A stretch of DNA of 36,318 nucleotides from Rhizaria sp. SCN 62-66 (GCA_001724265.1 MEDY01000313.1:1-36318); one strand, 5' to 3'; shown: positions 4,101-31,222, counted from the first letter of the stretch. Notes: a model not told the origin generated them from the sequence alone. A program made the numbers and translations.

Positions 4101-7100
4101 AACCTGATTGAAGGAAGCAAGAGCGAAAACAAAGAAAGAGATATAGATGAGTTATACCACAATAAATCCATAGATTCTTTGTGAATATCATTTATACAGT
4201 AATAATACACCTTATAAAGTCCATATCATAGAGATATATCTGCTTTAGTAAAAACTTACCTGAGACCAAGCGGCGCCGAGCGAGGCAGTCAGCGGCACCG
4301 AGGTGCTGTGCGCCGCCACAGGGCGGCCGCGGGGCCGGCGCTTGGCACTGCCGCCGGCACCACCGGCCGCGCTCGAGCTAGCGCCGCCACTGCCGGGCTG
4401 CGAGGGGCGAGCGCGGGGCCGGTTGGGGTTGAGGGCAAACGTGTGGCTCGAGCCCGAGCTCGAGCTCGACGAGACAGCGACGGCCTGACCGAGAGTCATG
4501 GGGACGGCGGTGTTGGTATTGCTGTTGGTATCAACATCGGCCTCGTCGTCTTCGTCATCGTCGTTGCCGTCGTTGTTCCCGCTACCGGTCTCAGAGAATA
4601 TAACGGAGTCATCGTCGTCGCTGGCGCTGTAGTAGTCATCCTCGTCCTCGTCCTCGTCTTCGTCAGCGTCTTCGTCGTCATTAGCAGCCTTCTTCCTGCC
4701 CTTGCCGCTCTTGCCGCCCCTGCCGTTGCTCTTCCCCTTGCCGCCACCCACGGGCAGCACAAGGTAGCCCGTGGCCGCCAGCGACGCCTGCTTCGCCTTG
4801 GCCGCCGCGGCTTCTGCCGCCGCCGCCGTGGCTGCCGCCGTCACCGCGTCGCCCGTGCCCGCCGTTGCGGCCGCGGAGGCCGCAGCGGCCAGCGCGGCGG
4901 CAGCCGCGGCGGCAGCCGCGGCGTTGGCGGCGGCGCGCGTCGCAGTCATGGGCTCGGAGTGCAACAGCGCTGACGACGACGAGGACGCAAGCATGTTGCC
5001 AGACTTGCCACCGTTCTTGCCCTTGCCTGCCTGTTGCTGCTGTTGCTGCTGCTGGCCCTGCTGATGTTGCTGCGCCTGTTGCTGTTGTTGCTGCTGTTGT
5101 TGCTTCGTCAACGGCTGCTGCGAGTACATTGCGGGCAGCCGTAGCGCGCTCGTGACCGGAATGCCGGCCGCGGCCGTGTCTTCGGACACCATAAAGTACT
5201 TCTGCGCGTACACCGCCGGCGCGGCGAGCTGCTGCTGCTGTTGTTGCTGCTGTTGCTGCAGCAGCAGCTGTCCCAGCCCGCCGCCCGAGCCGCTTGAGTC
5301 GTTGTTGTTGTACTGGTTGTCGTCGTTGTTCGCGCTGTTGCTGGCGTTGTTGGAGCCGCTATTGGCGCTGCGCGCGGCGGCGCTGGCGTCGACGGTCTGC
5401 TTGAACCCCGCAAGCCGGCGGTGCCACTGGCTCTGCCACGCGTTGAGCGATGCCGCCTCGCGCTCCTCGAGCGCGTCCGTCGACCACAGATGGCGCTGCA
5501 TCGCCGCGCGCGCGCTCACGGTGTTGCCGCCGCTGAGGCCGCCGCCGCCGCTGCCGCCGCCGACGCCGACACCAGAGCCGGAGCCGGAGCCGCCGAGGCC
5601 GCCGCTGATGCCGCCCGAGGAGCTGCTGCCGAGCCGGCCGGTGCCCGCGCCAGCGCCAGCAGTGCCTGCCATACTACCGGCACCAGCGTTGGCGCAGTTG
5701 GCATTGCTGCCGCTATTGGCGCCACCGGAGGAGGACGAGAAATGCGACGGAAGCAAAGAAGCAACGCGGTGGCTGCCGCGACTACTGACGCTGCCGCTGC
5801 CGCCGACGCCGCTGCCGCCGCCGCCGCCGCCCGCGCTGGCGCCTCGGCCGGCCGCGCCAGCACCCCCGACGCCACTGCCTCCAGCGCCAGCGCCGCCGCC
5901 GCCCGCGCCGCCGCCACCGCCGCCGCCGAGGCCGCCGAGGGGGGCCGCGACCGCGGTGCCGTCGTCTGCGGGGTCGAAGATGCTGGCGTAGGCGGCCACG
6001 GCCGTGGGGTGCGAGCTGAACTGGTCAAACACGCCGTCCGCGGGCGGCTGCGCCGAGGAGCGCGTGGTAACCACGGCGCCCCCGCTGCGCATCGTCACCA
6101 GCACCGAGCCGTCGGGGCCGCGCGCAACGGTGCCCGCGCCGGAGGCGGCTCCAGTGGAAGCGCCGCCGCCGCCGCCGCCGCCGCCCTTGGCGCCCGCCCC
6201 TGCGGCGACAGGGTGGCCGGCAGCGGCGCTGGCGCTGCTGCTGTTGCTGCTGCCTCGAGTGCGCGAGCGCGCCGCCAGCAGCATGGGCGTGAGAGCCGCG
6301 ACGGCCGACTCAAAGCTAAGCCGCACCACGAGCAGGTGCTTCATGCGCGCGAACGCGGGCTCGACCCAGAGCCAGGAGCCCGCGCCGCCGCCGCTGGCGT
6401 TCGCGTTGGCCGCGGCGGCGCTGCTGCTGCTGCTCGAGCCGGAGTAGCCGCCCGTTCCGCCACCGCCGCCGCCGCCACTGCCGCTGAGGTAGTTCGCTGG
6501 GGGCAGCCCGCTGGAGCTGCTGCTGCCGCCGTTGATGCCGCTGTTGCCGCTGAGCGCGCCGGTGATGTTATTGCCGACGGCGGCGCTGCCGTAGTAGCCG
6601 CTGCCCGCGCCGCCGGCCCCGCCCGCGCCCGCGCCCGCGCCGCCGACGCCCACGCCGCCCGCGCCCGCGCCCAGCCCGGCCCCAGCCCAGTCGCCGAGCC
6701 CGCTGCCGCCGCCGCCGCCGCCGCCACCGCCGCCGCCGCCGAGGCCGAGCCCGCCGAGGCCGCTGGGACCGGCGCTCGTGCCCGCGCCCGCGCCCGCGAA
6801 GCCCGCGGCGGCGGTGGCGGGGCCGTAGAGCGCGGCGTAGCCGTATCCGCCAGTGACCGCGGCGGGCAGCAGCACCGACACAGAAGGGTCAGCGCCGCCG
6901 AAGCCGAGCATGCGCGTGCCCGCCAGCACGCCCACACCGCCGGGCCCGATGCTGGCGCCGAGTGAGGCCGCCTCGATGCGGCCCGCGTTGCCGCCGCCGC
7001 TGGCGTGCAGAGCGGCGGCCGCAGCGGCCGCGGCGGCGGAGGCGGAGCCGCCCGCGCCGCCGCCGGCGTTGGCCAGGGCCAGCGCGCTGGCGGCGGCGGC

Positions 7101-8533
7101 CGCAGCGGCGGCGGGCTGCTGCTGCGCGTGCGCCGCGCCCGCGCCCAAGCCCGCGGGGTTATAGGGGTTGTTTGGGTTGCCGTGGAGCTGGTCTGCGATC
7201 ACCGCGATGCCGCCGCCGCCGCCCGCGCGCGCGCCTGTGGCCGCGGCGGCGCCCGCGCCGGCGGCGCCGGCCCCGGTGGCAGCGCCTGTGCCTGTAACGG
7301 CGCCGCCGGGAGTGAGGCCACCCGCGCCGATGACGCCGCCGCCGACGCTCGAGGCCGAGGCGGAGGCGTCGAGGCGCAGTGACTCCGTTGGGAGGCGGTT
7401 GAGGTGGTCGACGAGCGAGAAGCCGTGCTTCTGCCAGCGCGCCTGCACGGCGCCGAACTCGCGCCACTCGGCGTGTCCCCAAGAGTGCCAGTTGCTCAGC
7501 GGCGGCAGGCGCTCGGCGGCCAGAGTCAGCGCACGGTGCAGCGCCTTGGTGCGCGCGCGCGACTCGCGGTTGCCCTGGCCACCGCCGCCGCCACCGCCGC
7601 CGGTAGACGAGGAGGACGACGCGGAGGCAGTAGCGGAGACGCCTGTAGAGGCCTGTGAAAGCTGAGGCGCGGCGAAAATAAAGCGGAGGGTATCCTTCCA
7701 GCCTTGCCTGATAACTCAAAAAACAGATTTAAAAAGAGAATATGCATCGGAACATGAGAGGAAAATATGACGACGGTTTACAATTAAGTCAAATGTCCCT
7801 ACTTTAACGTAGATCTACAGCTTGAAATAAAAATACAGACAGAGTTGGGACTATCTATACTCTTAGCAGTGTGATTTGTTTCAGGCTCAGAGACAAAGAC
7901 GCACCTCGAGAGCGCGTCGGCGCGCGCGACGCGTTCCTGCGTGTTGGGCACGCGCATGTCCTCGAGCAGCCCGCGCACGCCAGCGGGCAGGTCGTCGTGC
8001 GCGCGCGCGCACTCGGTGTATGCGTAGCGCGAGACGTTGAGCGCGCGGGGCGGGATGTGGTACGCGTGGTGCGGCTGTGGCTGCAGGCTCAGGAGCTGCT
8101 GCTGCTGCTGGTACGACTGGTGCAACGGGAGCGCGTAGCCGCCGCCCGCGCCGGCGCTGTTAGACGAAGAGGGTGGACGCTGGTAGTAAGAGGCATTCGA
8201 ACCAGACGAGCCAGAGCCTGAGCTAGAGCTTGCGTTACTGCTGCCGAACGATGACGGGGCGACGATGCTGGGGGGCTGTCCGGGGCTTGACGCGCCGGCA
8301 ACGGAGGGCAGCATAGTGGGAAGACCGCCGCTCGCGCCCGCTGAGCCAGAGCCGGCTGAGCCTGCGCCGGAGCCAGAGCCAGAGACTGAGGCGGAGGCGG
8401 GGCCGGGGCTGGAAAGAGGAGTGGAGCCAGTGCCTGAGAACGAGGCTGAGGCGCCGGCGCGGGCGAGAGCGTCGCTGCGGCGCGGGCCAGGGCCAACGCC
8501 GCCGCTGCTGCTGGTGGTCACGCTGGCACTCAT
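1119..8533 (-). CDS. Large (~2353 aa) low-complexity protein with a calcineurin-B/neuronal-calcium-sensor-like EF-hand region; 3 exons
   Basis: Exons 8533-7905, 7707-4260, 4103-1119. Introns 7904-7708 (GTGCGT...TTATCAG, phase 2) and 4259-4104 (GTAAGT...AATCAG, phase 0) join ORFs 7799..8635, 4245..7448 and 1119..4064 in frame (7062 nt, TAA stop). Poly-Ala/Gly/Gln/Asp/Asn tracts separate globular-looking islands, including LPFIGDKLFRVL...IDVKDH...LLYHVLDIDEDGVLSVQDIF. The ATG at 8533 is inferred. Confidence 0.8.
2460..2495 (-). other. EF-hand Ca2+-binding loop DIDEDGVLSVQD
   Basis: 12-residue loop with D1, D3, D5, G6, hydrophobic 8, S9, D12. It follows the helix ALLLYHVL, which resembles the (F/Y)xxYDxDxDG context of calcineurin B/recoverin EF3. 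Confidence 0.65.
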
Positions 8534-9983
8534 CGTGCGGGGGCGCTGCGGCTCGGTGACGCGAAGGTGCAACGGAGGGAGTGACTGCGATTGTTCTGCT
8601 GTGTGAACTGGCTTAAGAAAGTGCTGTAGTGGCACATGAAATAAATTTCAAACAAAGTCATAAAGGTGAGCAAACAATGTGTGTGTGTTTTCTATGAATT
8701 TTAGTGTGGCATCTGCGTTGACGGAACTCTGGTCGTGTACGATTAGAAGTTAGATGTAACCGTTTTTCCTTGCTGGATCGACTACCATTGTCGGTAAGGT
8801 ACCGAGTCGGTCGACTGTGGTCATCGAAAACCGCGTGTGATAAGATCTGACATCAGATATTGCGGTATATAATATCCTCCCTTTAGTATAAGCTTGTGAT
8901 ATTGCATATACAAAGTACGAATTTACTTAAAGCAAGACGTTATAACTACGAAATCCTTATTTATCATGCGATATGCGGTAGGATATTGAGCTCTTTGTTT
9001 TCAAGTTAGGCATGATGCACTTATGAAGAAGCCAAACGAAGCATTCGAATCCATACAAAAATGTATAGTATATGTGTTATGTGCATATCGATGTCCTAAA
9101 TCTGCAAATTTTTTCGGATCTGCAATAATCGTATTGCTGCATAGGACGGAGAGCCATGCAGAGAAGCTTGCATGACAGCAATATCAAGTTCTCGGGTTAA
9201 CTTCTAGTCTCACATGGCCTCGTCCGACAAGGGCTCGCCATAGTCATCGTCTAATTCGTCAATTGATAATGTGGCGATAACATGCTCGTCGTCGGAGCAC
9301 ACTCATCTTCATAGTAGTCCTCGAAGTCATCCTCAAAAGCTTGATCGTCGTTGTCGCCGTCGTCGTCGTCGGACACGCCGCACTCGCCGTGTCCGCCGTG
9401 TAGGCACCTACGGTTACAACAAAAACTTATGCCTTGCCCTGGCCTTCAGACGGTATAATGCAGTCAAACTTCTCATCAACTTCAGTCTGTTACTCATCTA
9501 ACCTACTGCAGAGGCTTTGAGAGATGCGTCGCGTATCCTGGGTGCAGACTCGCAAAGCTAAAGTGAACGTATAACCTAATGTAGACCCAGTGCAACTGCC
9601 ACGCTTTGTTCGGTGGCTCAAAATCACTGTTACGTTAGTCCCTCGCGTTGCTGTACACCTTGGCTGAAGCAATGTTCTGTTTCTTCGTCCGCTCGGACCA
9701 AGGCAGTGAACACTCCTCATGGGCGAAGCAATATTTCCTAGAGTGAATACGGTATTATTTGAGCGTGTACTGTTCTGTAAATTGGATTTTCTTGGCCTTT
9801 TTGTTGGAAAATATAAGTTGTTCGAATAATCACCCGGAATATTGTTTCAAATGTTCCATATTCTGTTCCTCAATGTCGCCATGAACAGACACCACAAGCC
9901 TCCCCTGCTCTAGCTTTGCACTGCTTCTCACACCCTTAGCTTGCCTTCATACGCCTCACGATCGACCCCATAGGTGGCTTTTG
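8534..9983. promoter_or_regulatory. AT-rich divergent intergenic region; probably holds the promoters of the EF-hand gene and the metalloprotease gene
   Basis: Lies between two head-to-head start codons. No specific promoter motif identified. Confidence 0.35.
9210..9410 (-). pseudogene. Possible decayed coding remnant (acidic peptide with a frameshift)
   Basis: Minus strand reads LHGGHGECGVSDDDDGDNDDQAFEDDFEDYYEDEC and, after a frameshift near 9298, SDDEHVIATLSIDELDDDYGEPLSDEAM-TGA. GAC/GAG-rich coding-like island in otherwise AT-rich DNA; upstream frames contain stops. Confidence 0.3.
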
Positions 9984-12900
9984 ATGCGCGCTCCCGTGCA
10001 TCTTGGCCGCTCCCGCTCGCAGCCGTCGGCGCTGCGACTGGTGATGTATCTGCTGGCAGCGGCCGCAACGGTGGTAGCGATAGCTCCCACCCTTGCTTCG
10101 GCCGCTCCCGCGCCTTACGACGCGAACACTTCACACAAGCAGGGGCCCACCTCGAGTCCCCTTACGACGGTTGAGGCCGTCACGCGGCTATTTCTCCGCA
10201 GCGCTCCGGCCTCTGCGCGTCACAACCGCGACAACAGTGCCGGTGCCGTTAGCGATACCGACAACGACGGATTCTTCCCCCAATCCGTATTTTCCCATTC
10301 AGACGCTTCGATGCACGCCCTGGGCGCCAACATCGAGCTTGGCTTCGAGGCTTTTGGCTCACAGTATGCGTTCAACATGACTCTGATGCCCTCCGTGCTC
10401 GCTGCGGACGCGCTCGTCGTCGACGGCGTCCCGCAGAAGGTGCAGGAAACACCCTCGTATATGTACGTCAATAACAAATATGCATATGTACTTAGCCACG
10501 TAAAGGTGTGACATTGAGTAATAATGTCAAACTCTATTTAATCTTCTTTCCGTAATACTCTTGCTCTTCGTTTTCTTTGCGTCATCGCCTTATTTTTGCT
10601 AATGATTCTCTCTGTGATCACTTGCATTTGTGTTGTCACTCCTGTTCAGGTCTCGTTTCACTGATTCGAACGGCAACACCGGCTTCGCCGTCGCCACGAT
10701 TGACCCCACCACGAACACTGTCTACTCCGGTTTGATCCACGAAAACGGCGAGCTGGTCCACTTCCAGCGCGCCAGCACGCTCGCCGACACGATCGGCAGC
10801 TTTCGGGCGCAAACTCTTACTGAGGCCTCGCTCGCCGCCGCCGGCTCCGGGCTCGCCGTGCACCGCGTGAGCGACATGAAGCTCTTCGGCGACGACGGCG
10901 AGCCGCTGCTCAAGTGCGGCACGCTCACGCCGCCGCAAAGCAACCCCAACGCCCCCGCGTACAGCGCCGACGACGATGTGAGTTCTGACTCTGGTTCCGC
11001 GACGGCGGGCAGTGTCAGCGAGGCCGATGTCGGCGCGGCGGCGATGGCGCTGAAAAATAAGCTGCTTCGCTCGCTCGTGACCGCGGCCGCCAGCGAAAGC
11101 GCCGGTGGTGACAGTGGTGACAACGATGGTAAGATCGACTACCACGTCCCGCACGTACCCTTCGCCTCGACACTGTCGAACTCTGACAGCGACAACGGCG
11201 CCAGCGACGAGAACAGCGGCAACCGCAAGCTCCTGCTGAAGAAGTGGACCAACTGCTTCTCTGGCGGCCCCTACAAGCTCCGGTCTTTGCTCGCGGTCGA
11301 CGTTGGCACTTACGCCGCTCTCGGCAGCACCACATCGGCCGTGTCCACGGCAATGAGCGCTATGTACGCGCTCGTCAACACTGTATACTACCCGCAGCTG
11401 GACCTGTACGTAACGATCGACACGCTTCTGGTGCGGACAACGACGGGCACCGAGGCGTGGAACCATCTGGCCAAGACGACCAGCGGAACCACGTGTCCGT
11501 CGAGCGTGAGCACGCTGCTCGATCAGTTCACGGCGTGGAAGAACGCCAACTACCTGAACGACTTCGGCTTCGCACACCTTATGACGTCGTGCTTCCCCCC
11601 GCCCGGCACGGTCGGACTGGCCTATGTGGGTACCATTGGCTCCAAGAGCTACAGCACCGGGTGGAGCCAGCAGATGGGCGGCACCACGTGGCTCACTTTC
11701 GCCCACGAGGTTGGGCACAACCTCGGTGCGCAGCACACATTCAGCCAGGGACAGGGCACCACGGGTACGTCACTCAGGTTCAAACTGAAGGAACAAGGAA
11801 CAAATATCAATGCCACATCCACAATTTTTTTCAATTGCATGTTTATGACTCTAACTTTTTATTTTTAAACGTTATTTGTCGGTGCACGGTATATCCGCGT
11901 CAAATGTAGGTGGCATCATGGACTACGGCAACGGCCGGCTGCTGGCCACCGACTCCGACAACCCGAACGAGTACGGCTTCCACACGACGTTCAGCAAGAC
12001 CGAGATGTGCACGGCCATTTCGCGCTCTATCTCCGGCACCACCAGCGGCCTCGTATCCCCGCTGACCAAGGCGTGGGTAGCCTTCACGCCGATGTGCGGC
12101 GACGGCATCGTCGACGCCGCGCTTGGCGAGGAGTGCGACCCCGGGACTCCGGGCGTGGCGTCAGCGTGCTGCACCGCGCAGTGCAAGTTCACCACGGGCT
12201 CCACCTGCGACGGCGCCAGCGCGTGCTGCGTCAGCTGCAAGATGCAGCCCGTGGCCACGCCCTGCACGTCCAACGGCGCCACGGGCCGCTGCGGCGCTGG
12301 CGGCGTGTGCACCGCCAGCTCCTGCGGCTACTACTCCAACACTGTCTTCTGTGACATGAGTCCCAGCAACGCGTGCAGCGAGCGGTGCGCCTTTACGGGC
12401 TCCACCACCTGCAACGTGCTCAACTCGAACTTCAACCGTACCAACGGCGATCTCTGCCAGCTCGGCACCGCCACAGGTATGTAAACGCTCCTCTTTTTTT
12501 TGCGTCTTCATCATTGACGTTTTTTGTTTAACTTATTACATGTGCCTCATTACTATCTTTGCCCAATGTATTTTCTTGTTTTTGCTGTCGTTTAGGCGTG
12601 TGTTCGGGCGGCGCGTGCGTCGCGCAGACCTACACTGCGAGCAACGTCACGGAGTGGTCCTCCTGCCAATGCCCCGCCTCCGTCATGACGCGCTCCTTGA
12701 CCTGCCGCAATCAGGTCGGCTCGGTCGTCGCGCAGTCATACTGCGCGTCTGCGACGCCTATTTCGCAGGCGTGCTCGTGCACGACGGCGACGTGGTACGC
12801 GGGCGCGTGGTCCGCATGCACGGGCACGAGCTGCGCCGCGGGCGCGGGCACGCAGACGCGCACAATCGAGTGCCGCGACAGCAACGGCGCCGCCACCACG

Positions 12901-15900
12901 GGCTGCGCTGAGTCCTCGAAGCCCGCGGCCTCGCAGGCCTGCAACCGGCCGTGCACGTACTCGTGGACGTGCCGCGCCGCCGCGTCGACTGCGCTCGGCT
13001 CGGCCGAAGTCTGCGGCGAGAGCAACGCCTTTGCGGCCTGCGGCACCACCTGCGGCACGTCGACGCGCACCCGCGTCGTGACATGCCGCGACGACCTGAA
13101 CCAGGCCGCCACTGACTCGGCCTGCGACGGCACCAAGCCCGGCACCTCGCTCGCTTGCACGGCGACCGACACGTGCGGCTGGCGCTGCTACGCTACGGGC
13201 GGTAGCAGCACCGCGGCCGTGTTGTGCGACAACGACGGTGCGTTTGGTACGTGCTCCGCTACGTGCGGCTCGGGCCAGCAGACGCGCGCCGTGGGCTGCT
13301 TCGGCGACTCGCTGGCGACGACGCTGTCCGACTCGTTCTGCACGCCCAACGCACCCAGCAAGCCCGCGACGACGCGCGCGTGCACCGGCACCGGCTGCGT
13401 CGAGCAGTGGTACTGCGCGGCCACGGGCGCCGACGTGAGCACGCGCCGCCTTTGCTCCGAGGTGCCCGCGTGGTCCACCTGCAGCAGCACCTGCGGCGCG
13501 GGCGTGCAGACGCGCCAGGTCATGTGCATGAACCAGCTCGGCCAGGCGGGCACCTGCGCCGGCGTGGCCGCCCCCGCGAACTCGCAGGCGTGCTCGTCGA
13601 CCGCCGCGTGCGTGTGGCGCTGCAAGCCCACGGGCGCGGCGTCCTCGTTTGAGCCCGCGCTCTGCACGTTGTCCACGACCTTCGCGGCCTGCAACGAGAA
13701 CTGCGGCGCCGGCACACGCACCCGCACCGTCGGCTGCTACGCGCCCGCCGCGCTGACGGTCGCGCTGGACGACGCCATGTGCCCCACGGCGACAGCGGGC
13801 GCGAAGCCCGTGACGTCGACGGCGTGCGAGGGCACGGACTGCGTATATTCGTATTCGTGTGCGGCAACAGGCGCCGCGGCATCGACGGCGACGGACTGCG
13901 TGGCCGACGACCAGTGGTCGGCCTGTGGCACCACGTGCGGCGAGTCGACACAGACGCGACAAGTGCTTTGCAAGAACCAGAAGGGCGAGACGGCCGCGCT
14001 GGCCCGCTGCCAGGACTTCCTTCCCGCGGTCACCACGCCGGCCGCGAGCAAGGCGTGCGTGGCCAAGAGCAGCTGTTTGTGGTCCGCGGCCGCGTGGGGC
14101 GCGTGTTCCGCCACCTGTGGGGCAGGAACCACCACGCGCGCTGTCACCTGCCGGAGCTCCAATCAAGGTACGCAATTAGTTCACATGCAATTTCATCTGA
14201 AACTGTGAACATCCTTCATCTCTCCCATGTAAATGACTGTAGCGACGATGTCTCACGTCGTCGCTACACATGTACATATGTACATGTATCATGAAACTCA
14301 TACTCTAACATCATGGAACGCATCATGAAACTCATACTTTAACTCTTATCGTGCTTAAATGGTTTACGCTTTCTGAACTATAGTTGAAATGGCGGAAGGC
14401 TTCTGCTCTGAAGCCGGCTCTAAGCCCGCCACGTCTTCCTCATGCGAAGGCTCCGGCTGTGTGTACCAGTACTACTGCTACAACATCACTGGCGGCACCG
14501 TCGCGCAGGCCACGCCGTGCAGCACCAACATCGTATGGGGTGCTTGCTCCGCCACTTGCGGCACCGGCACGCGGACCCGCGCCGTCACCGCGGTGTGCCT
14601 CAACCAGAACAAGGTCCAGAGCAGCACGGCCTGCGCCGCGCTGACGCCGCCCGTGCTGTCTGAGTCGTGCCGCGCGACATCGGCCTGCGCCTGGGGCTGC
14701 CAGGCCACCAGCAGCGACGCCGTGGAAGCCTGCACCGCCACCGGGCCCTGGGGCGCGTGCTCCGAGCAGTGCGGCACGGGCGTCAACACGCGCGTTGTCA
14801 CCTGCCGCAACGGTACCGGCGCAACCGTGCTGGATGAAACCCTGTGTGTGGACGGCGCCGGCACGAAGCCCGCGACGAGCGGGTCGTGTCTGCTGCGCCA
14901 GTGCCAGTTCGTGTGGCACTGCTACGCCAACGGCGCCGCCGTGACCTCCGCGGTGCCATGCACGACCGAGAGCTCGTGGAGCGCCTGCGGCACAACGTGC
15001 GGTACGTCCACGCAGTCGCGCCAGACCGTCTGCCTGGACTCTGTCACGCGCGAGCAAGGAACTTGCCAGGTACGTTTGGAACGAAACAGTGCTTGACAAT
15101 TGCCTGAGAAAATCTTGAGATTACTAATGTGTTTTTCGATATGTTATTTTTCAATGGCCCAAACTTACGTGCGTTATATTCATTATTTTCTCACTAATGT
15201 TGATATCATAGGAGACTCGTCCGGCCAGCTCCCGCTCCTGCTCTGCGACGAGCACGTGCCAGTGGGCGTGCCGCACGCCCACCTCCGCGCTCTCCGCCGC
15301 GGGTTCTTGTGACGGTGAGTTCGGCTTCGCGTCCTGCTCCGCGTCCTGCGGCAACGGCACGCGCTCGCGTACCGTCGCCTGCATCAACAGCGCCAAGGAC
15401 GTGCTCGCCAACACCATGTGCCCCGTCGAGACGGCGGGCGCGCGCCCGACCGACAGCATCGCATGCTCCGGTGTCGGGTGCGTCTATGGGTGGAAGTGCG
15501 GTCCGACGGGATCGGCGGCCGCCAACCTGCGCGACTGCGCCCTCGAGACTACCTGGTACGTCGTCAGAACTAGGCTTAGAAGCAACGCACTAATCCCCTA
15601 TTTTAATGTATAACGACATCTCACTTGCTTTATTTATACGTTCACTCAACTATCTCAATATTCTCAATACTTGTGCCATATTGCCCCCTCGCAGGACTGG
15701 CTGCTCCACCTCGTGCGGCAACGCCCTCGAGTCGCGCGTCGTCCAATGCCTGAACCAGAACAACCAGGTCGCCGCCTCGGCCGACCTGTGCACGGGCGCC
15801 AAGCCCGACGCGCAGCGCACGTGTTCCTCCACGGCGACGTGTCAGTGGCAGTGCTACGGCCTCACGGCCGACGTCACCACGCGCAAGGACTGCTCCAACG

Positions 15901-18900
15901 CCTCGACCTGGGGCTCCTGCCCCTCGCGCTGCGGCGTTGCCAGTCAGACGCGCCGCGTCGGCTGCTTCTCGCCCTACAACAACAACGCGCTCTCGGAGAG
16001 CTTCTGCGCGGCCTACACCAAGCCCGCGCAGCTGCAGTCCTGCAACGACTCTGACTGCGCCTTCGAGTGGGTCTGCGCCGCGGCCGGGCTCGACGCGTCT
16101 GTGCCGGGCGTCGGCGTGGCGTGCGCGCAGAACCCCGGCTGGGGCGACTGCGGCACCACGTGCGGCTCGCGGCTGCAGATCCGCTCAGTGGCCTGCATGC
16201 GGCCCAACGGCACGCTGGGCACCGCGACCGACTGCGGCAGCACGACGGGCGACATCGCGACCATGCAGCAGTGCACCGCCAATTCCGGCTGCGGCTGGCG
16301 CTGCTACTCGCCCGACGCCGACGCCGCCGCCACGGCGACCAACACGACGGACTGCGCGAGCGAGGCGACCTGGGGCTCGACGTGCTCTGCGCAGTGCGGG
16401 CCAGGCGTCAGAGAGCGCCGCGTGCAGTGCGTCTCGGGCGCCGACGACTCCGTGGTCGACGAGGCGCTCTGTCTGGCCGCGCCTGAGGTCCACGGTGCCA
16501 AGCCCGCCGCGGCGCGCGCGTGCTCGGGTACAACGTGTACGTACCGCTGGTTCTGCTATGCGCCCGACGCGGACCCCTCGACGGCGGAGCAATGCGCGGC
16601 TGACAACGCGTGGGGCGGCTGTGCGACGTCGTGCGGCGAGAGCAATCGCTACCGGACGGCCGTGTGCCGCGACCAGGACGGGCAGGACGCGCTGGGGATG
16701 TGTCTCGAGGCCGAGCCCGAGACGGTGCAGCCCTGCTCGTCGACCGAGACCTGCCGCTGGGGCTGCTCGCCCCATTCTAATGAGTTCGCCGACTGCTCGC
16801 TGTCCGAGACGTGGGAGCCCTGCTCCGCGTCGTGCGGCCTCGGCACGCGCGACCGCACGGTACAGTGCCGCACCGGCTTCGGGGAGGGCTCGCTGGCGCT
16901 CAATGACACCTTCTGCGCGGCCGCGACCGCTGGCGCGAAGCCCGACGCCGCGAGCTCGTGCATCGACACGCCGTGCCCGGCCTCATGGTTCTGCGCGCTT
17001 GAGGGCACGGAGCCGTGGGCCGCCGAGCTGTGCTCCGTGGCGACCAGCTCGTGGCCCGCGTGCACGGCCACGTGCGGCACCGCGACGCTGCGCCGCCAGG
17101 TCCTCTGTCTCGACGTCGACACGCGCGCCGTCCGCGACGACTGCGCCGAGGCCAAGCCGGCCGACGAGATGACGTGTTCATCTTCGGCGGCGTGCGCCTG
17201 GCAGTGCTTCCCCGGCAACAACACCGCCGCAGCCGCCGTGGCGTGCAACGAGAACGCGTGGACCTCGTGCTCCGCGCAGTGCGGGCCCGGCGTCCGCACG
17301 CGCGCGGTCCGCTGCTCCGGCCTCACGGGCGCCGCCGCGGGCACCGCGCTCGTCGACGACAGCTTCTGCCTCCCGCAGTCCCAGTCCGGCGGCGCCGGCA
17401 CCGGCAGCGCGCGCCCCAGCGACAGCGACGTGTGCGAGGGCAACGCCTGCTCTTACGCCTTCTACTGCCACGCGCCCAGCGAGACCTTCGCAGTCGCGCA
17501 CATCGCGAGCTACACTTGCGGCGCCGACGACAACTGGTCCGCGTGCGGCACCACGTGTGGCGCGGGCACACAGACGCGCGTGACGACGTGCCGCGACCAG
17601 CTGGGCCGCGAAGACGCCTCGCGCTGCACCGATCTCCCCACGACGTCACGCGCCTGCACCGGCACCAGCTCTTGCGGCTGGCTCTGCCGCGGCTCGACCG
17701 CGCTCGCGACCGACGCGCCGCTCGCCTGCTCGAGCGGCAACTCGTGGGGCGCGTGCTCCCGCGCCTGCGGCCTGGGCGTCAAGAGCCGCGCCGTGTTCTG
17801 CGGCGACGTGGCGAACCCGCAGTCGACGGCGACGATCGCCGCGGCGCTGTGCGGCGCAGCGGCGTAGCCCGAGAGTGAGCGCGACTGCTACGAGGAGGCG
17901 TGTGCGACGACGTGGCACTGCGCGGCCACGCAGGCGCAGACGCCGTCGCCGTGCACGTCCGCGGTGACGGCCGAGGCGGACTCGACGTGGGCGGCGTGCA
18001 GCACCCAGTGCGGCGACGGTGTGCGCGCGCGCTACGTGACGTGCCGCAGCACGGCCTCGCGCACGCTGCGCGACGAAACCGAGTGCGCGGGTGAGTTCAA
18101 GCCCTTGGCGCAGCGCAACTGCAGCGAGAGCTCCTCGTGCGCCTGGGAGTGCAGTGCCAACGGCACCGTGACGGTCACGAACCCCGCGGTGCGCTGCACG
18201 GCGGGCAGCGAACTCGCGCTCGCCGAGACCAGCACGTGGCCGGCCTGCCCCGTCGACTGCGGCTCCGCAGTCGCCACGCGCGTCGTCGGCTGTGTCAACA
18301 GCTACCTCGCCGCCTCGGCGGCCGGCCGCACGGTCGATGACAAGTTCTGCAACGCTAACTTCTACGTCGGCCAGAAGCCTGCCGTGAACCTGCCCTGCAG
18401 TGGCTCCAAGTGCGTGTACCAGTGGTACTGCTCCGAGCCCGGCAGCACTGTCAAGAAGCCCTGTTCCGAGGCGCCCAGCTGGGGCCCCTGTGGCACCACG
18501 TGCGGCGAGTCGACGCAGCGCCGCACCGTGCAGTGTCTGGACCAGACCGGCGGCGCGGGCGCGTGCGTCACGGCTGCGCCCGCGGACTCGCAGACGTGCC
18601 AGGCGACCGAGACGTGCCGTTGGCAGTGCCGCGCGCCGCTGGCCGCGAACGAAACCGGCATGACGGACGCGCAGCTGGCGCCTACCTTCTCGGCTTGCAG
18701 CGACGCTGAGGACTCAGCCGCGTGGTCAGGCTGCTCCGCTACGTGCGGCGCCGGTGTGCGCACGCGCGAGGTCGTCTGCCACACCGCCGACTACAGCAAC
18801 AGCTCCGGCTCCGGCAGCAACAGCTCGGCGACCGTGAGCAATGCGGCCGTGCTCAGCGACGCTTTCTGTCCCGCCACGGGCCCCGCGGGTGCGAAGCCGG

Positions 18901-21900
18901 CTGTGCAGGGCCCCTGCACGACGTCCAAGTGTTCGCACTCGTGGTTCTGCTCCGCCAATGCGACGAGCGCGGAGCGCTGGTGCCCCGAGGCCGAGGACTC
19001 CGCCGAGCACTGGTCCGCCTGCTCTGCGGGCTGCGGCACGGGCACGCAGACGCGCCGCGCCGTGTGCCGTGACCTGGCCACGGGCTCGGAGTCGACGCTC
19101 TGCACCGAGGCGCAGCCGGCGCTGTCGCGCGCGTGCTCGTCCTCGCGCGCCTGCGCGTGGCTGTGCAACCCGCTCGCGGGCAGCGCTTTTGCGGGCGCTG
19201 CGGCCGTGTCGTGCGATGATGGCGGCGCCGGCGGGTCCTGGGGTACGTGCTCCGCCGTCTGCGGCCCCGGCTCGCAGACGCGCGCCAAGGGCTGCTTCAG
19301 TCTCGACACGGGCGTCGCCGTCTCTGTCGCCGCCGAGCTCTGCGCCGGCGCCGTGGCGCCCGCGACGGAGCAGCAGTGCCAGGCCAAGGCATGCACCTTC
19401 AGCTGGCACTGCTATGGCGACACGAGCGCCGTCTCCGACGCCAAGCCGTGCGCGCAGCAGCCCTCCTGGGGCGTGTGTGGCTCCACCTGCGGGCTCTCGA
19501 AGCAGCACCGCAACATCGTCTGCCTCAACGACGACACCAAGGCGCTCGCCGCTGACGCCGTCGCGTGCGGCCCCGCGGCCTCGGCGCCGCCGCTGGAGCA
19601 GGAGTGCTACGGCTCCTCGACGTGCCGCTGGATGTGCCGCTCGCCGTCGCAACCCGCGACCGCAGCCGGCGAGTGCGTCGACACGGTGACCGCGTGGGGC
19701 TCTTGCGGCGCCACGTGCGGCGCGGGCGTCAAGACCCGCATCGTCGAGTGCCGGCCAGGTGCCGCGGGCGCCGCGGTGGGCGGCACAGCCGAGTCTGACA
19801 TGCTCTGTCCGCAGACCACTGCCGGCACCAAGCCGGCGACGACGACGCCGTGCCGCGCCGCCACGTGCCAGAATTCCTGGTTCTGCTATACCGAGGACGT
19901 CGCCAGCGCGACGCTGTGCGACACGGCGCCCAACTGGGGCGTGTGCAGCAACTCATGTGGCATCGGCTCCCGCAGCCGCAAGGCCGTCTGCCTCGACATC
20001 ACCACGCGCAAAGTACGTGTATCACTATATCCCTGAATTTTCTAAATCTGACATCTCGCAAATGATTTTCACACCCATAATTCCATATTTAACATCACTT
20101 ACTTTATCTCGCTTGGTGTAAAAAAAAAAATTGTTTTTCCTTGCACTTTAGGCGTCTACGACTTGCCCCGAGGCGCAGCCTGACCTGGAGAGCTTGTGCC
20201 AGGGCCGCAGCGGCTGCGGCTGGCGCTGCTATACGTCGACCAACACGACCCGCCGCACGTGCGATGCGACGTCCTTCGGCCTCTGCGGCGCGGCCTCTTG
20301 CGGGCTCGGCATGCAGTACCGCGAGGTGCGCTGCTTCCCGCCCGCCGCCAACGCCACCGCCGTGCCGGACTCGTACTGCACGGCGGACGCCGCGGCGGGC
20401 GCGCGCCCGGCATCGTCGCGCTCTTGCGTCAACACCGACAACTGCTCCTTCTCCTGGCAGTGCCGCAAGCCGGGCGCCACGGAGTGGGCGGCGTGCTCCA
20501 GCGGTGACGCGCAGTTCTCGGCCTGCCCCGCGGGCTGCGGCGAGACGGCCGCAACGCGTGAAGTGCGCTGCGTGAACCCCAGCAATGTCGAGGTCGATGA
20601 GTCCGCGTGCGTGACCTCGAAGCCGCTCACCACGCGCGCGTGCTCCGCCACAAGCACCTGCACCTACGGCTGGCGCTGCTTGACGTCCGCGGCCACCGCG
20701 CTCGAGGCGCCCGCCGTATGCTCGACCGGATCGAGCACGGTCGGCTGGTCCGCCTGCGACACTTCGTGCGGACCGGGCGCTAGCACGCGCAACGTCGTCT
20801 GCCTCAACCTCAACCTGGGCGTGCCCGTCGACTCTTCCCTCTGCGTCACTGCTACCGGCGCTGCGCCCGAGTCGTCGCGCGCGTGCACGGGCACGGGCTC
20901 CTGTCTGTGGCGCGCGGGCACATGGTCCACGTGCTCGCCGCAGTGCCGCGCGCTTTCCACCTCGCCCAACGGCGCCCGCGCCCGCGTAGTGTCGTGCACG
21001 GGCGTGCTCAGCAACGGCACCGCCGTCGCCGTCGCGTCCTCGCTCTGCTCCAGCTCCTCCGCGCCCGTCTCGAGCGAGACGTGTGCCGACACGCCGCTGT
21101 GCAGCGCCGCCAACAAGCCCTTCTGGGTCACTGGCGCGGCCGCCACTGCGTGCGTGGCCGAGTGCGGCACGGGCTACCAGACGCGCAGCGTGGCTTGCCA
21201 ACTCGACGGCGCCATCGTTTCCGACGGGCTCTGCATCGCGAGCACGCGCCCCGCCGCCATCGTCGCCTGCAACGCCACCACCGCGGCGTGCCCGCAGGCC
21301 TCTACGTCAGTCGAGTCGTCGCAGTGCGTTGACCGCGAAGTCACGGTCACGCTGCCGATTCCCACCACGAATGGCTCCGCGTCCACCGCGAGCGAGACCA
21401 AGACCATCACCACCGGGGTCTGCGTCTGCGCCAACGGCTTCACGGGCGCCACGTGCACGGCCCCGCCCTCGACGGTGTCGGCCGTGTCGTACTCGCCCAG
21501 CGGCGCCGTCTACCGCGGCACCACGCTCTTCATTTCCTGGACCTACACGCCCTCTGCAGCCGCGCTCGCGGCGGACGAGACCGAGTATGTGACGATCATG
21601 TACGAGCGCTCGGGCATGGGTGAGAAGTTCCCCGTGCCCATTGCCACAGTCGCCGCCGCGGACGGCACTTACAGCTGGCTGACACCCCTGGACCTGCCCA
21701 CGGCCACGGCGGCGCAGATCTCGGTGCACGTTGCCACGGGCATCCGCGCGCGCTCGCTCGCCTTCGCCGTGCCCTCGGTCTGCTCCGTCGGCGCCTACTG
21801 CAACGGCAACGGCCAGTGCAAAGAGGACTTGGACTCCGGCACGGCCACCTGCGCCTGTGAGTCGGGCTTCACCGGCACGCGCTGCGACGTCGGCGCCTGC

Positions 21901-24111
21901 GATGACGCTAAGTGCTACCAGCCCGGCACGGCCTCGGTCACCGCCGACACCTGCGCCTGCAATTGCAACAGTGCCTACACGGGCGCGACCTGCCTTACCC
22001 CGCTCAACTGCACCAACGCGGCCTCGTTCGACCGCGTCGTGTGCGCCAACGGCGGCGTGAACCAGCCCCCCGCATCTGGCTCCAACGCCGTCTGCGGGCC
22101 CTGCGCCTGCACCAACGCGTGGGAAGATGACACCGACGTGGTCGCCCGCAGCAACCGCGGCTGCACGCGCTGCGGGTTGTCGTGCGGCGCGCACGGCAGC
22201 GGCAACACCGACTGCACGGCCTGCACCTGCGCCGCAGGCTACGCGGGCGCGCGCTGCCAGTGCCGCGCTGTCACCCTCGCGCTGTCATTTAAGTACACGG
22301 TGCTGCCGTGGACGGACATGACGGCCGCGGCGCGCAGCACGGCGCTCGCGCTGCTCGAGTTCGAATTGGAGACCGTGGGCAAGCTCCCCGCCGGCTCCGC
22401 GCGCGCCAGCAGCTCGCCCGCGCCCAGCGTCATCACGCACGTCAAGTACGGCAAGCACACCACCCTGTGGTTCAACGTCGTCGGCGCCTGCGACGTTGAG
22501 ACATTCGACACCATGTCCGCGCTCGACCAGACCGACCTGTTCCCGGTGAGCAACAGTACGACTGCCGACGGTGACAGCGATTCTGCGGCGGCGTTCGCCG
22601 CGCTCAAGTCGATCGAGGCCGTCTCCCTCTCGGCGCTTCTCGCCGTCGGCGACAGCGACAGCAACGGCAGCGGCGTCGCGTTCGCCGCGGCCGCCGTCTC
22701 CGGCGACGCGAGCACCGAGACGACGCTGAGCGATCTCTACACCGCGATCAGCCGCCTCATCGCCGCCTTCTCCCTCGACGGCGACTCCACGGGCTCGGGC
22801 TCCGGCTCCGGCACGAGCACCGGCGCGGCCAACTCGCAGTCGGCGCTGAGCTCCACCGTCGCGCTGTCCTCCGCGGCCATCTCGCGCGGGCTCTATGTCT
22901 CGGACCCCAACTGCACGCCCTCGGCGACTTCGTCCTACTGCCCCGCCTCGACCGGCGCGGTGCGGTCCACGGGCGCGACAACCGACGACGACGTGTGCGT
23001 CGGCTCCGGCTGCGACACTGACGGCAGCGGCGACAGCGACCCCAACTCCAAGTACGGCTTCCTCAAGGCGCTGATCGTGATTCCGGGCGTGCCCGCGTGG
23101 GCGAGCATTGTCATCATCCTCGGCGGCGGCGTTCTTGTGCTCATCCTCCTCATCGTCCTAATCTGCTGCTGCCACAGCCGCAGCAAGCGACGCAAGGCAG
23201 AGCGCAACCGCTCCACGCTCAACGACGCCGCCACCGAGACCTTCGCCTCCCCCGGCGCCGGCGCCAGCGCCAGCACCAGCGCCAGCGGCGGTGTCGGCCG
23301 GGCTGGGGGCCGCAGCGTGGTCGGCGCGACGAGCGTGCAGGTCGAGATGACCCCGCGCCCGCAGTCAACCGCTCCCCGCGCGGGCTCCGCCGCCGGCGCC
23401 GGCGCCCCGCCGCGTGCGGCCACCGCCCCGCGGCCCAAGGGTGCCCCTGCCCCCGCCGCCGCTGCCCCTGTCGCCGCTGCCCCGGCAGCCGCTGCCCCTG
23501 TTGCCGCTGCGGCTGTGGCTGCGCCTCGCTCGAGTGCGAGCAACTCTAAGTACGACCAGGCTGCGACGGCGCCCCGGCCCAGCGTCAAGCCCGCCGTCGC
23601 CGTTCCTGCTGCCGCGACTGCGGCTGCTGCTGCCGCTGCTGTGGCGGCCGCCGCCGTCACTGCCGCCGTCGTCGCCTCGAGTGACAAGCCGGCGGAGACG
23701 GAGAACGAGACCGCTGACAACGATACCAGCTACGACGAGGACGCGGCCTTCACCGGCGCCGCCGTCCCCCTTGCGGCCAACGTTAACACCGAGGCCGACG
23801 CGCATGCTGACTCCGACACCGACGTCGAGGGCGCCGAGAACACCACTCATAACAACAACGCCGTTAACAGCAACAACGCGAACGATGACGGCGAGATCGA
23901 GAACGTCAACTCGGACGCCGCAGACGCTGACGCCGACGCCGACGACGGTGGCGACGTGCTTGACGCTGACGCTGACTTCGCCGCCGAAGCTGACGCCGAC
24001 GCAGCCGTTTCCGAGCCTGTGCCTACTGCCTCTGCTGCTGCTACTGCTGCCGAGGCCGAGGCCGAGGCTGAGGATGAGAGCCAGGGCGAAGGCGAGATCG
24101 AGAGCAACTAA
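9984..24111 (+). CDS. Giant membrane-anchored ADAM/ADAMTS-like metzincin metalloprotease with ~36 thrombospondin type-1 repeats; 8 exons; one internal in-frame TAG
   Basis: Exons 9984-10462, 10650-11764, 11910-12476, 12596-14167, 14384-15069, 15212-15555, 15695-20012, 20152-24111. All 7 introns are GT-AG, AT-rich, 119-216 nt and frame-preserving (13041 nt = 4347 codons, TAA stop). Motifs in order: hydrophobic signal peptide (start 9984 or 10044), cysteine-switch-like LKCGT, RKLL processing-like site, HEVGHNLGAQH plus Met-turn GGIMDY (joined across intron 2), disintegrin-like CGDGIVD..GEECDPG..CC..C, WxxCSxxCGxG..R.V.C repeats, EGF modules (C.C..GFTG..C), TM helix, acidic tail. Codon 2312 is TAG. 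Confidence 0.88.
11704..11736 (+). other. Metzincin zinc-binding motif HExxHxxGxxH (HEVGHNLGAQH), reprolysin/M12B-like
   Basis: Intact motif with catalytic Glu, preceded by GTVGLAYVG and followed after splicing by the Met-turn IMDY. Confidence 0.92.
12095..12310 (+). other. Disintegrin-like cysteine-rich domain
   Basis: CGDGIVDAALGEECDPG...ACCTAQCKFTTGSTCDGASACCVSCKMQPVATPC matches the ADAM pattern CGNG.V..GEECD.G...CC...C.......C....CC..C. Confidence 0.75.
14226..14343. repeat. Hairpin, palindrome and direct-repeat cluster inside intron 4 of the metalloprotease gene
   Basis: 14-bp stem TGTAGCGACGATGT-ctc-ACGTCGTCGCTACA (14238-14268) bracketed by CATGTA (14226-14231, 14269-14274). 20-bp perfect palindrome at 14268-14287. 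22-bp direct repeat ATCATGAAACTCATACT(C/T)TAAC at 14288 and 14322. Confidence 0.75.
17865..17867 (+). other. In-frame TAG inside exon 7 (readthrough, recoding, nonsense allele or sequence error)
   Basis: ...CTG TGC GGC GCA GCG GCG TAG CCC GAG AGT GAG CGC GAC TGC... The same frame continues as PESERDCYEEACATTWHC and stays open to the intron at 20013. Confidence 0.9.
23098..23172 (+). other. Single transmembrane helix with juxtamembrane CCC and basic stop-transfer segment
   Basis: WASIVIILGGGVLVLILLIVLICCC followed by HSRSKRRK: type I topology; Cys palmitoylation is plausible. Confidence 0.85.
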
Positions 24112-27240: not shown

Positions 27241-27699
27241 TGTGTGTGCTTGTGTTTGGTTTTGTGGGGGATTTTGGATCATATCGATGAATACACCTCA
27301 AAGTGGCATCTTAAAACATTCTCTTTACTCATATCGTATTGTTCCCTTTGCATGAAATGTCTCTCTAGGGCTTCATATTAGTTCCTTTCGTCGAGCCTCG
27401 CGTTCGTCTCCACACCGTCTGCGCTGTGTCACCGCCGTTCGCGCCCTCTCGGACACCGACCTTCTACTTGATCTACGTATATAAATCATTCGTCAATAGA
27501 GATAATAATGTCATTCATTGGTTTAAAGGACATCTTTTTATTCGAATTTAATAACAGATCTGTACTTCACTTGACCTACCCTTATGTATCTATCTATTTG
27601 TCATTTGCCTCTCTCGACGACTCTGTCCCCCCCAACCCAGGACACACACCGACCACACGCACGCCTGTCTTGCCTCGCTGCCTTTGTCGTCGCTGCCCG

Positions 27700-30600: not shown

Positions 30601-31222
30601 GGCGACCAGCGACTCGCTGATCATCATCGACGAGCTGGGCCGCGGCACGTCGACCTACGACGGCTTCGGCCTTGCCTGGGCGATCGCAGAGCACATCGCG
30701 AGCAAGATCAACGCATTCGCGCTCTTCGCAACCCACTTCCACGAGCTCACCACGCTCGCCGTCGAGTCCAACAACATCGTCAACCGGCACGTGACGGCGC
30801 AGACGGGCGCGGGCACCATCACGATGCTCTACCGGCTGCAGCCGGGCGCATGCGACCGCTCCTTCGGCATCCACGTCGCCGAGCTCGTCAGCTTTCCGCC
30901 CGAGGTCGTGGCGCTCGCACGCGCCAAGGCCGCCGAGCTCGAGGCATTCGGCAACGAGTCACAGGCCTTCGTCGCCGCGCAGCAAGACGCGGCCTCGCGC
31001 AGCGCCAGCGCGAGTGCGAGTGCGGCTGTTGAGTGCAAGAGCGAGGGCGGCGCGGCGGCGGCAGCGGCCGCGGTGGCGGCGGTGAGTGACGACGGCGCGC
31101 TTGCTTTCCTGCGCGCGCTGTTTGACTCCGAGGTGACCGTGGGCAGCGCGAGTGCCGGCGAAGGGGACAACCTCGAGATCGATGCGCTGATTGCCAAGGC
31201 CACCGCGGTTGGCCTTGTCTGA
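27700..31222 (+). CDS. MSH2: DNA mismatch repair protein MSH2 (~1069 aa), 3 exons
   Basis: Exons 27700-28818, 28991-29565, 29707-31222. Introns GTACGA...CTCAAG (172 nt) and GTACGC...CCGCAG (141 nt). MSH2-type motifs: FSRGDFYAVFGADA, GSPGDL, YMRLDAAA..ALN, GRRLLQWLRLPL, ARHPCLE, TGPNMGGKSTYIR, RVGAGDSQMKGMSTFMKEMLE, DELGRGTSTYDGFGLAWAI, FATHFHELT, SFGIHVAEL. TGA stop. Confidence 0.96.

Follow-up and report, generated by a model that had tools for sequence, protein, structure and literature searches.

A putative giant adamalysin of an unnamed protist family, with an in-frame stop codon in its thrombospondin repeat stalk, in Rhizaria sp. SCN 62-66

Proteases of the ADAM and ADAMTS groups are usually treated in terms of shedding and matrix remodelling in animals, the former as anchored proteins without thrombospondin type 1 repeats (TSRs) and the latter as secreted proteins in which an M12B (adamalysin/reprolysin) head is followed by such repeats. 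Outside animals, an M12B ADAM-like peptidase transcript has been reported in the thraustochytrid QPX, which the available part of the source presents without the architecture considered here, in which an adamalysin head, TSRs, EGF modules and a transmembrane (TM) helix stand in one protein (PMC3986615). A literature search, with subscription journals outside its coverage, found no description of an adamalysin-TSR-EGF-TM family. The present work deals with a stretch of 36,318 nucleotides from Rhizaria sp. SCN 62-66 (MEDY01000313.1:1-36318, assembly GCA_001724265.1), referred to below as the window, and with a gene at 9984-24111 on its plus strand, which had been described in a sequence-only reading as an ADAM-ADAMTS hybrid. 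We give somewhat better than even chances to the view that 9984-24111 is one real, spliced gene of an uncultured eukaryotic microbe from wastewater or bioreactor communities, that its product is a giant among the members of an unnamed protist family, and that the gene carries a recent nonsense codon in the sampled population.

In the gene, eight long open stretches alternate with short AT-rich gaps, in a window whose base composition is ~70% GC in the coding parts and richer in AT between them. Each gap opens with GTACG or GTATG and closes with AG, and the whole was modelled as eight exons and seven GT..AG introns (Table 1). Once joined, the exons amount to 13,041 bases, or 4,346 codons, the last of which is a TAA stop at 24109-24111. 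The exon joins are supported because intron removal restores motifs conserved in homologues. Thus, removal of intron 2 brings GQGTTG and GIMDYGNG together, matching in the alignment the sequence GQG(S/T)TGGIMDYG of five homologues and close variants of it in two more, while removal of intron 3 restores a Cys-rich stretch that can be aligned with homologues. Introns 3-6 are likewise of the GT..AG kind with GTACG or GTATG donors, and the TSR pattern is kept across their joins. Introns, polyA RNA contigs and protist homologues all fit a eukaryotic origin, which is consistent with the unicellular eukaryote that the sequence-only reading had thought probable. The single continuous protein of that reading stands in so far as there is one gene in one and the same frame, but seven introns must be removed to obtain it, and the joined frame still holds an in-frame TAG, discussed below. 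The alternative of two genes, which that reading had itself raised, found no support: a separate gene in the second half was rejected, since the part behind the TAG lacks a start and a signal peptide of its own and continues the same repeat, TSR 22.

The same collinear order of parts, namely M12B domain, disintegrin-like region, TSR array, EGF module, Ig-like domain, EGF/Cys-rich block, SEA-like juxtamembrane domain, TM helix and tail, was found in six other proteins. The window gene shares this order at the level of sequence and belongs to a family of adamalysin-TSR-EGF-TM proteins of stramenopile, alveolate and rhizarian (SAR) protists, of which the hypothetical protein TrLO_g4395 of the stramenopile Triparma laevis f. 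longispina may serve as the type. This protein (P0001, 1773 aa) was matched by the catalytic exon at E 2.1e-27, and the same exon also matched P0005, a transcript-derived protein of 1969 aa. The accession prefix of the latter, GEZN01, denotes the Paulinella chromatophora transcriptome according to the accessible part of the source (PMC12569754). BLASTP searches with the C-terminal module recovered both proteins as collinear matches, P0001 at E 3e-20 over 363 residues and P0005 at E 1e-14 over 301. A scan of 1.84 billion representatives with this module gave 61 matches at E <= 1e-3, with 11 at <= 1e-10 and 3 at <= 1e-30; by hand count, about 27 of the 61 align as one stretch of at least 200 residues, the rest being generic EGF-repeat proteins such as animal Notch. 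Four metagenome proteins of 1,719-2,055 aa (P0017, P0018, P0073 and P0074) combine a Reprolysin domain with 9-11 TSP1_ADAMTS stretches, and an EGF match is present in all but one of them. A hydrophobic stretch follows the C-terminal module in many homologues, P0017 and P0018 being the ones in which it was checked. Among 20 family-hit clusters looked up, one bears an organism name, that of Ploeotia vitrea, from a transcriptome that could include prey sequence, and the remainder are environmental. The sequence-only reading had not recognised this architecture as a described one, and in the literature covered it is indeed without description; it is not a one-off, however, since Triparma, Paulinella and the metagenome proteins show the same order in the databases.

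At the amino-terminal end of the window protein, a signal-like hydrophobic stretch occupies residues 15-41 (exon 1), with which those at the N-termini of P0073 and P0074 coincide in the alignment. The prodomain contains a single Cys, in the motif LKCGT (10909-10923). The pattern x-C-G is common to the window and to four of the six homologues that have a prodomain, P0001 having the Cys without the Gly and P0002 no Cys; a match to Pep_M12B_propep (PF01562) was not found at E <= 0.01. Just ahead of the catalytic domain, at ~11221-11247, lies R-K-L-L, with R-x-L-L in four of the six homologues that include this region; the two others have R-x-L. Given the respective cleavage specificities of S1P/SKI-1 and furin, R-x-L-L is a possible candidate for the site at which the propeptide is cut, resembling sites of S1P/SKI-1 and not those of furin. 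On the catalytic domain itself five Reprolysin-type Pfam families scored above cut-off, with Reprolysin_5 as the best (E 1.9e-20), PF13688 at 74.4 bits (cut-off 27) and PF01421 at 39.9 bits (cut-off 20.8). The zinc motif HEVGHNLGAQH (11704-11736, exon 2) is kept in all seven homologues with the strict motif, and the Met-turn GIMDY follows at 11912-11926 (exon 3). Among solved structures, those closest in sequence are snake-venom adamalysins, with acutolysin-C at E 4.6e-11 and 16 chains of the PDB at E <= 0.01. Taken together, zinc motif, Met-turn, Pfam scores and structural matches assign this domain by sequence to the M12B family. Behind it, in exon 3, Pfam Disintegrin reached E 1.4e-4 and 23 bits, under its cut-off of 35.1, and the region aligns with five homologues from the start CG[DN]G..(G)E.C onward; no Pfam match to ADAM_CR was obtained.

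The stalk that follows contains 32 strict and four degenerate TSR cores, about 36 in total, and 34 TSP1_ADAMTS stretches were detected by Pfam over the pieces scanned. The corresponding E values were 3e-52, 1.5e-20 and 1e-7 on exons 4-6, and 4.5e-64 and 2.3e-52 on the two halves of exon 7 that flank the TAG, whereas the first part of exon 8 (20152-21285) accounts for five stretches. In relation to the TAG, 22 TSRs are situated before it and 14 after it. Individual copies are 60-88% alike at the DNA level over short stretches and share no long exact repeats; Tandem Repeats Finder (TRF) and a repeat search of the window detected neither an array of TSR period nor a recent DNA-level duplication of TSR units. 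This low likeness among the copies means that the number of repeats is no product of assembly and that the expansion is not recent. Two TSR types alternate along 12640-21285, one with a [KR]P linker and a shorter one with C-G-T-T-C-G-x-S-T-Q-T-R, and in sequence the array looks as though it had been assembled from a two-TSR unit of ~150 residues. The pattern C-x-x-S/T-C-x-x-G, the O-fucosylation site of TSRs, occurs in 11 of the repeats, and W-x-x-W in none of them.

Beyond the array, the EGF/Ig/EGF module was modelled by AlphaFold2 with a mean predicted local distance difference test (pLDDT) of 82.6, and Foldseek searches with this model returned Notch EGF repeats, integrin beta EGF and Ig/FN3 sandwiches. 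In the same module Pfam EGF_Teneurin matched at E 1.7e-5, and the Ig-like family Kre9_KNH at E 1.6e-5 in the homologue P0018 and at 0.11 in the window protein. An alignment of 20 sequences of the module has 25 invariant columns, nearly all of them Cys, and the window keeps all 25. The juxtamembrane domain gave a model of mean pLDDT 65.3, with an ordered core above 84, for which the top rows of VIA-align were MUC16 SEA5 (Z 7.7, root-mean-square deviation 3.7, 112 aligned), TMPRSS6 (Z 7.4) and Trop2 (Z 7.1); Foldseek found nothing for this domain at E <= 0.001, Pfam gave no match, and the ESM Atlas no usable one. A single strong TM helix is indicated by a Kyte-Doolittle mean that peaks at 3.44 over 19 residues. 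The tail of 313 residues contains 97 Ala, 22 Pro, 26 Asp and 22 Glu and is also rich in Ser. WW domains are present at the cytoplasmic C-termini of P0005 (E 9.2e-8), P0074 (3.6e-8) and P0035 (1.2e-7), which suggests, as far as sequence goes, that such tails may recruit proline-motif partners; unlike these homologues, the window's tail has no WW domain according to Pfam but is rich in Pro and Ala. Depth climbs to 124-816 over 23108-23611 in each of the four runs, in a region of GCC-rich repeats coding for Ala and Pro (TRF rows 23255-23510). This rise is due to contigs of other organisms attracted by low-complexity DNA and carries no copy-number signal.

Most of the parts named in the sequence-only reading were recovered by these analyses: the signal peptide directly behind the start ATG, the prodomain with LKCGT, the intact metzincin domain, the ~36 TSRs, the EGF module, the beta-rich domain (a beta-sandwich by AlphaFold2 and Foldseek), the additional EGF/Cys modules, and the TM helix with its long tail, in which Ala, Ser, Asp and Glu abound. 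The disintegrin domain of that reading holds as a region of good alignment with homologues, but not as a Pfam assignment above cut-off.

What the sequence-only reading did not contain is an in-frame TAG at 17865-17867 (codon 2312), located in exon 7 within TSR 22, with an identical reading frame on either side. The supposed uninterrupted full-length protein is therefore cut at this codon. All six full or near-full homologues have an uninterrupted frame, and the window gene departs from the family in this respect, the TAG being found in it only. The TAG occupies the K/R position of a [KR]P linker (motif C...[KR]P...C), a position that is K or R in 22 of the 22 other linkers. The gene contains 73 AAG codons and no AGG, and the origin of the TAG appears to be most simply a single-base change from AAG. 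As encoded, the product would be left without 14 TSRs, the EGF/Ig modules, the TM helix and the tail.

At the DNA level, contigs of the sets X2 and X3 span 15526-19120 with no differences and run unbroken over the TAG. The open reading frame (ORF) that ends at the TAG (P0006, 753 aa) and the one that follows it (P0007, 690 aa) were each found letter for letter on seven Logan/ENA contigs. Among the public contigs and ORFs searched, no sense-codon variant at 17865-17867 was found, and a query with X at the stop found no TAG-spanning ORF among those of 330-1050 and 1051-3000 aa. That the TAG is genuine in the DNA is something we hold with good confidence. The 2,034 codons behind it show no further stops or frameshifts, and the G+C content at third codon positions (GC3) is 0.895 downstream versus 0.885 upstream. 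Because these downstream codons are undamaged, the change would be recent, or, alternatively, the remainder would still be read. A scan with 300 post-TAG residues matched 129 stretches, from which one distant locus was confirmed (L001, 26% identity); this being the sole confirmed locus, there is therefore no close relative for comparison at the TAG. Three other explanations were considered and rejected. Reassignment of TAG as a sense codon disagrees with one TAG in 4,346 codons, a GC3 of 0.89 and a TAA as the gene's own stop. An intron removing the TAG disagrees with GC-rich coding sequence that continues TSR 22, with no GTACG-type donor and no AT-rich intron composition. Finally, P0009 (676 aa, from another assembly) might have been taken as a strain variant, but its 669 residues identical to the exon 8 product are followed by seven unrelated ones, as in a contig-end or chimeric artefact.

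The stretch was found in bioreactor, wastewater and activated-sludge runs. Two independent runs of 2025, X4 (DNA) and X5 (polyA RNA metatranscriptome), were used as contigs. All eight X5 pieces listed fall in predicted exons, three before and five after the TAG, one of them overhanging an exon end by five bases, and in the intergenic bin upstream of the gene (9500-10003) RNA depth is zero. These pieces are a weak sign that both halves are transcribed. One X5 contig (17869-18360) starts one base past the end of the TAG, which may reflect chance at low depth or variation at the site. Strain differences in X4/X5 comprise nine synonymous and three non-synonymous changes before the TAG, and four and five, respectively, after it. 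An X4 contig of depth 3 has a G inserted behind 16736 and lacks one base at 16740, a compensated shift that affects ~1 codon.

Several points weigh against a spliced, recently truncated family member. The introns are predicted from sequence signals and homology, and no splice joint was recognised among the 15 of 72 joints listed for the X5 RNA contigs, these joints having short sides of 20-25 letters and being repeat noise. The DNA evidence on 17865 consists of X2/X3 contigs and Logan/ENA ORFs, not of individual reads; contig depth is ~5-7, the X2 and X3 sets are identical and may be the source data of the window, and the seven contigs may share reads. An intact downstream half is equally expected if that half is still translated, and the contrast in strain differences on the two sides of the TAG is not significant (Fisher p = 0.20). 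As regards the family as a whole, protease activity, localisation and substrates are predictions for all members, and the likeness of the juxtamembrane model to SEA domains is weak, with Z under 8.

Low depth and apparent redundancy, X2 and X3 resembling one data set filed twice, bear on the possibility that the TAG is absent from the functional allele, either as an assembly or consensus error at ~6x or as one of the alleles carried by a diploid or mixed population, the intact one having stayed unassembled, in which case the full anchored protein of 4,346 residues would be made. The perfectly intact downstream half and the uninterrupted homologues would agree with such a situation. Nevertheless, we regard it as unlikely, in view of the exact recurrence of the two TAG-bounded ORFs on seven contigs from two sources (Logan and ENA), the presence of the stretch in runs labelled 2015, 2016 and 2017, and the X2/X3 contig that passes the TAG unbroken; moreover, the searches made would have ranked an identical spanning ORF first, and none was found.

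A premature stop upstream of an intron is the classical substrate of nonsense-mediated decay (NMD), and this one lies 2,034 codons and one intron ahead of the normal end. The locus might hence be a dying pseudogene with no useful product, its transcript lost to NMD while paralogues elsewhere do the work, and the higher share of non-synonymous strain differences downstream (4:5, against 9:3 upstream) points in the same direction. However, this contrast falls short of significance, polyA RNA contigs lie on exons both sides of the TAG, and 13 kb of coding sequence show one lesion only, so that we judge a dying locus to be distinctly improbable.

The remaining alternative, that the TAG is genuine but leaky or recoded through readthrough, A-to-I editing of UAG to UGG or unusual decoding, would give a secreted form of 2,311 residues together with a less abundant anchored one of 4,346. 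A C follows the TAG, and among eukaryotic termination contexts this is the weakest; the downstream half shows no damage, RNA contigs exist downstream of the TAG, and TAG terminates one of the seven ORFs checked in the window, an ORF unconfirmed as a gene. On the other hand, a single TAG in 4,346 codons, with none inside the other coding ORFs used, excludes TAG as a general sense codon, the known readthrough motif CARYYA is not matched by the context UAG-CCC-GAG, and the recency of the mutation would explain the intact downstream half equally well. We rank this alternative last and think it very doubtful. Coupled with it is a wider conjecture, to which we attach just as slight a chance: SAR protists would have assembled anchored adamalysin-TSR proteases independently of animals and, in this wastewater organism, with the stalk tripled to ~36 repeats and a leaky or edited TAG in the middle of it, a single gene would supply both a released, ADAMTS-like protease and a cell-bound, ADAM-like one. 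If true, the pairing of a protease with a TSR array would be neither animal-specific nor tied to secretion.

Returning to the family and to a recently truncated member of it, we infer that family proteins would enter the secretory pathway as type-I membrane proteins, with the prodomain Cys probably blocking the zinc, in the manner of a cysteine switch, until the prodomain is removed and the zymogen thereby activated. The active head would then stand far from the cell's own membrane, at the end of a long TSR stalk that is braced by disulphides and rises from the EGF/Ig base. Solved TSRs measure ~5 nm each. At this length, 36 TSRs could reach well over 100 nm. What the head might cut and the TSRs might bind would be proteins on the surface or in the matrix of prey, substrate or neighbouring cells. 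Adhesion, processing of prey or host surfaces, and shedding, the roles suggested in the sequence-only reading, would be conceivable functions. In the case of the window gene, ordinary translation would produce a secreted, ADAMTS-like protease of 2,311 residues with about 21 whole TSRs, and the anchored form would not be made. The combination of an M12B head, a disintegrin-like region, TSRs, EGF modules and a TM helix outside animals, in a stramenopile, a rhizarian and many environmental eukaryotes, makes the family a starting point for understanding how external surfaces are processed or gripped by free-living protists. The locus itself points to this family and exemplifies either a truncation of very recent date or a possible readthrough, and its value is lowered by the stop codon.

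Table 1. Exons and encoded modules of the gene (positions in the window).
Feature	Position	Strand	Remarks
Exon 1	9984-10462	+	start ATG at 9984, signal-peptide-like N-terminus (residues ~1-42), beginning of prodomain
Exon 2	10650-11764	+	remainder of prodomain with LKCGT, R-K-L-L, M12B catalytic domain
Exon 3	11910-12476	+	Met-turn, end of catalytic domain, disintegrin-like and Cys-rich region
Exons 4-6	12596-14167, 14384-15069, 15212-15555	+	TSR array, first part
Exon 7	15695-20012	+	middle of TSR array, contains the in-frame TAG
Exon 8	20152-24111	+	last TSRs (20152-21285), then C-terminal modules, TM helix and tail
EGF-like module, Ig/FN3-like beta-sandwich and EGF/Cys-rich block	21388-22260	+	AlphaFold2, Foldseek, Pfam
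Ig/FN3-like beta-sandwich	21457-21771	+	the beta-rich domain of the sequence-only reading
Juxtamembrane alpha/beta domain with low-complexity insert	22261-22965	+	SEA-like fold, weak
TM helix and basic stop-transfer CCCHSRSKRRK	23095-23169	+	Kyte-Doolittle
Cytoplasmic tail and TAA stop	23170-24111	+	313 residues

Elsewhere in the window, a MutS homologue with several exons lies at 27508-31222 on the plus strand and ends in TGA, with matches to MutS_I (4.6e-8), MutS_IV (4.3e-9) and MutS_V (2.3e-77); given a reference set, it could be used for placing the organism. Two very long GC-rich ORFs on the minus strand, at 1119-4064 (981 aa) and 4245-7448 (1,067 aa), are possibly exons of one gene and have a sub-threshold BUD22 match and otherwise no Pfam family. 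No tRNA genes or Rfam families were found in the window.

In comparison with known proteases, the plan in which an ADAM-like head, EGF module and TM helix are combined with an ADAMTS-like TSR array was confirmed by the domain scans. Even so, the label of an ADAM-ADAMTS hybrid, under which the sequence-only reading had placed it, is not the one to which the domain tests lead: by these, the window protein would be neither a true ADAM nor a true ADAMTS, but part of a separate M12B lineage. Like animal ADAMs, it has a signal peptide, a one-Cys prodomain, an M12B domain, a disintegrin-like CGDG..EECD, an EGF module, a single TM helix and a cytoplasmic tail, and in its working it would resemble their anchored, sheddase-type zymogens. 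It differs from them in the missing Pep_M12B_propep and ADAM_CR matches, in the sub-cut-off Disintegrin score, in having Reprolysin_5 rather than PF01421 as its best model, and in the Thr that stands after the third His of the zinc motif, where Asp is usual in ADAMs. A TSR array of 2,670 residues is also inserted between head and EGF module, in a place where ADAMs have no TSRs. With ADAMTS proteins it shares an M12B head followed by TSRs whose best Pfam model is TSP1_ADAMTS, and the TAG-shortened product would, like them, be secreted. In contrast, the full frame of the window adds an EGF module, a TM helix and a tail to what in ADAMTS is a secreted protein without anchor. The ADAMTS Cys-rich and spacer modules (PF05986, PF19236 and PF17771) gave no match on any piece at E <= 0.01, whereas the ADAMTS20-like protein P0008 has them; the catalytic exon matches P0008 at only 30% over 99 residues (E 1e-5).

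Snake-venom P-III metalloproteinases (acutolysin, VAP1, catrocollastatin) offer the closest solved catalytic structures, the 16 chains ranging from E 4.6e-11 to 3e-3, but they are small, secreted and, unlike the window protein, devoid of TSRs, EGF modules and a TM helix. The SEA/ferredoxin-like domains of mucins, TMPRSS proteases and Trop2 occupy the same membrane-adjacent place as the juxtamembrane domain and provided its top fold matches (Z 7.7-6.2, hence under 8); they differ from it in that there is no sequence match, and in that the window domain has a disordered insert of ~70 residues. SEA self-cleavage motifs are of the G-S-V-V-V type, and a motif of this type was not seen in the juxtamembrane domain of the window.

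The closest agreement is with the Triparma, Paulinella and metagenome proteins, which show the same order from the prodomain Cys to the tail, with C-x-C plus the alpha/beta domain following the EGF/Cys-rich block, the same zinc motif, the same GGIMDY and the same Cys framework of EGF, Ig and EGF. Compared with these relatives, which have 9-12 TSP1_ADAMTS stretches in 1,719-2,055 aa, the window gene has ~36 TSRs in 4,346 codons, long acidic and Ser-rich inserts in the prodomain and in the juxtamembrane domain, and no C-terminal WW domain of the kind present in P0005, P0074 and P0035. Judged from these sequences, the architecture is a trait of the family, and what distinguishes the window gene within it is a threefold longer stalk, the inserts and the stop codon.

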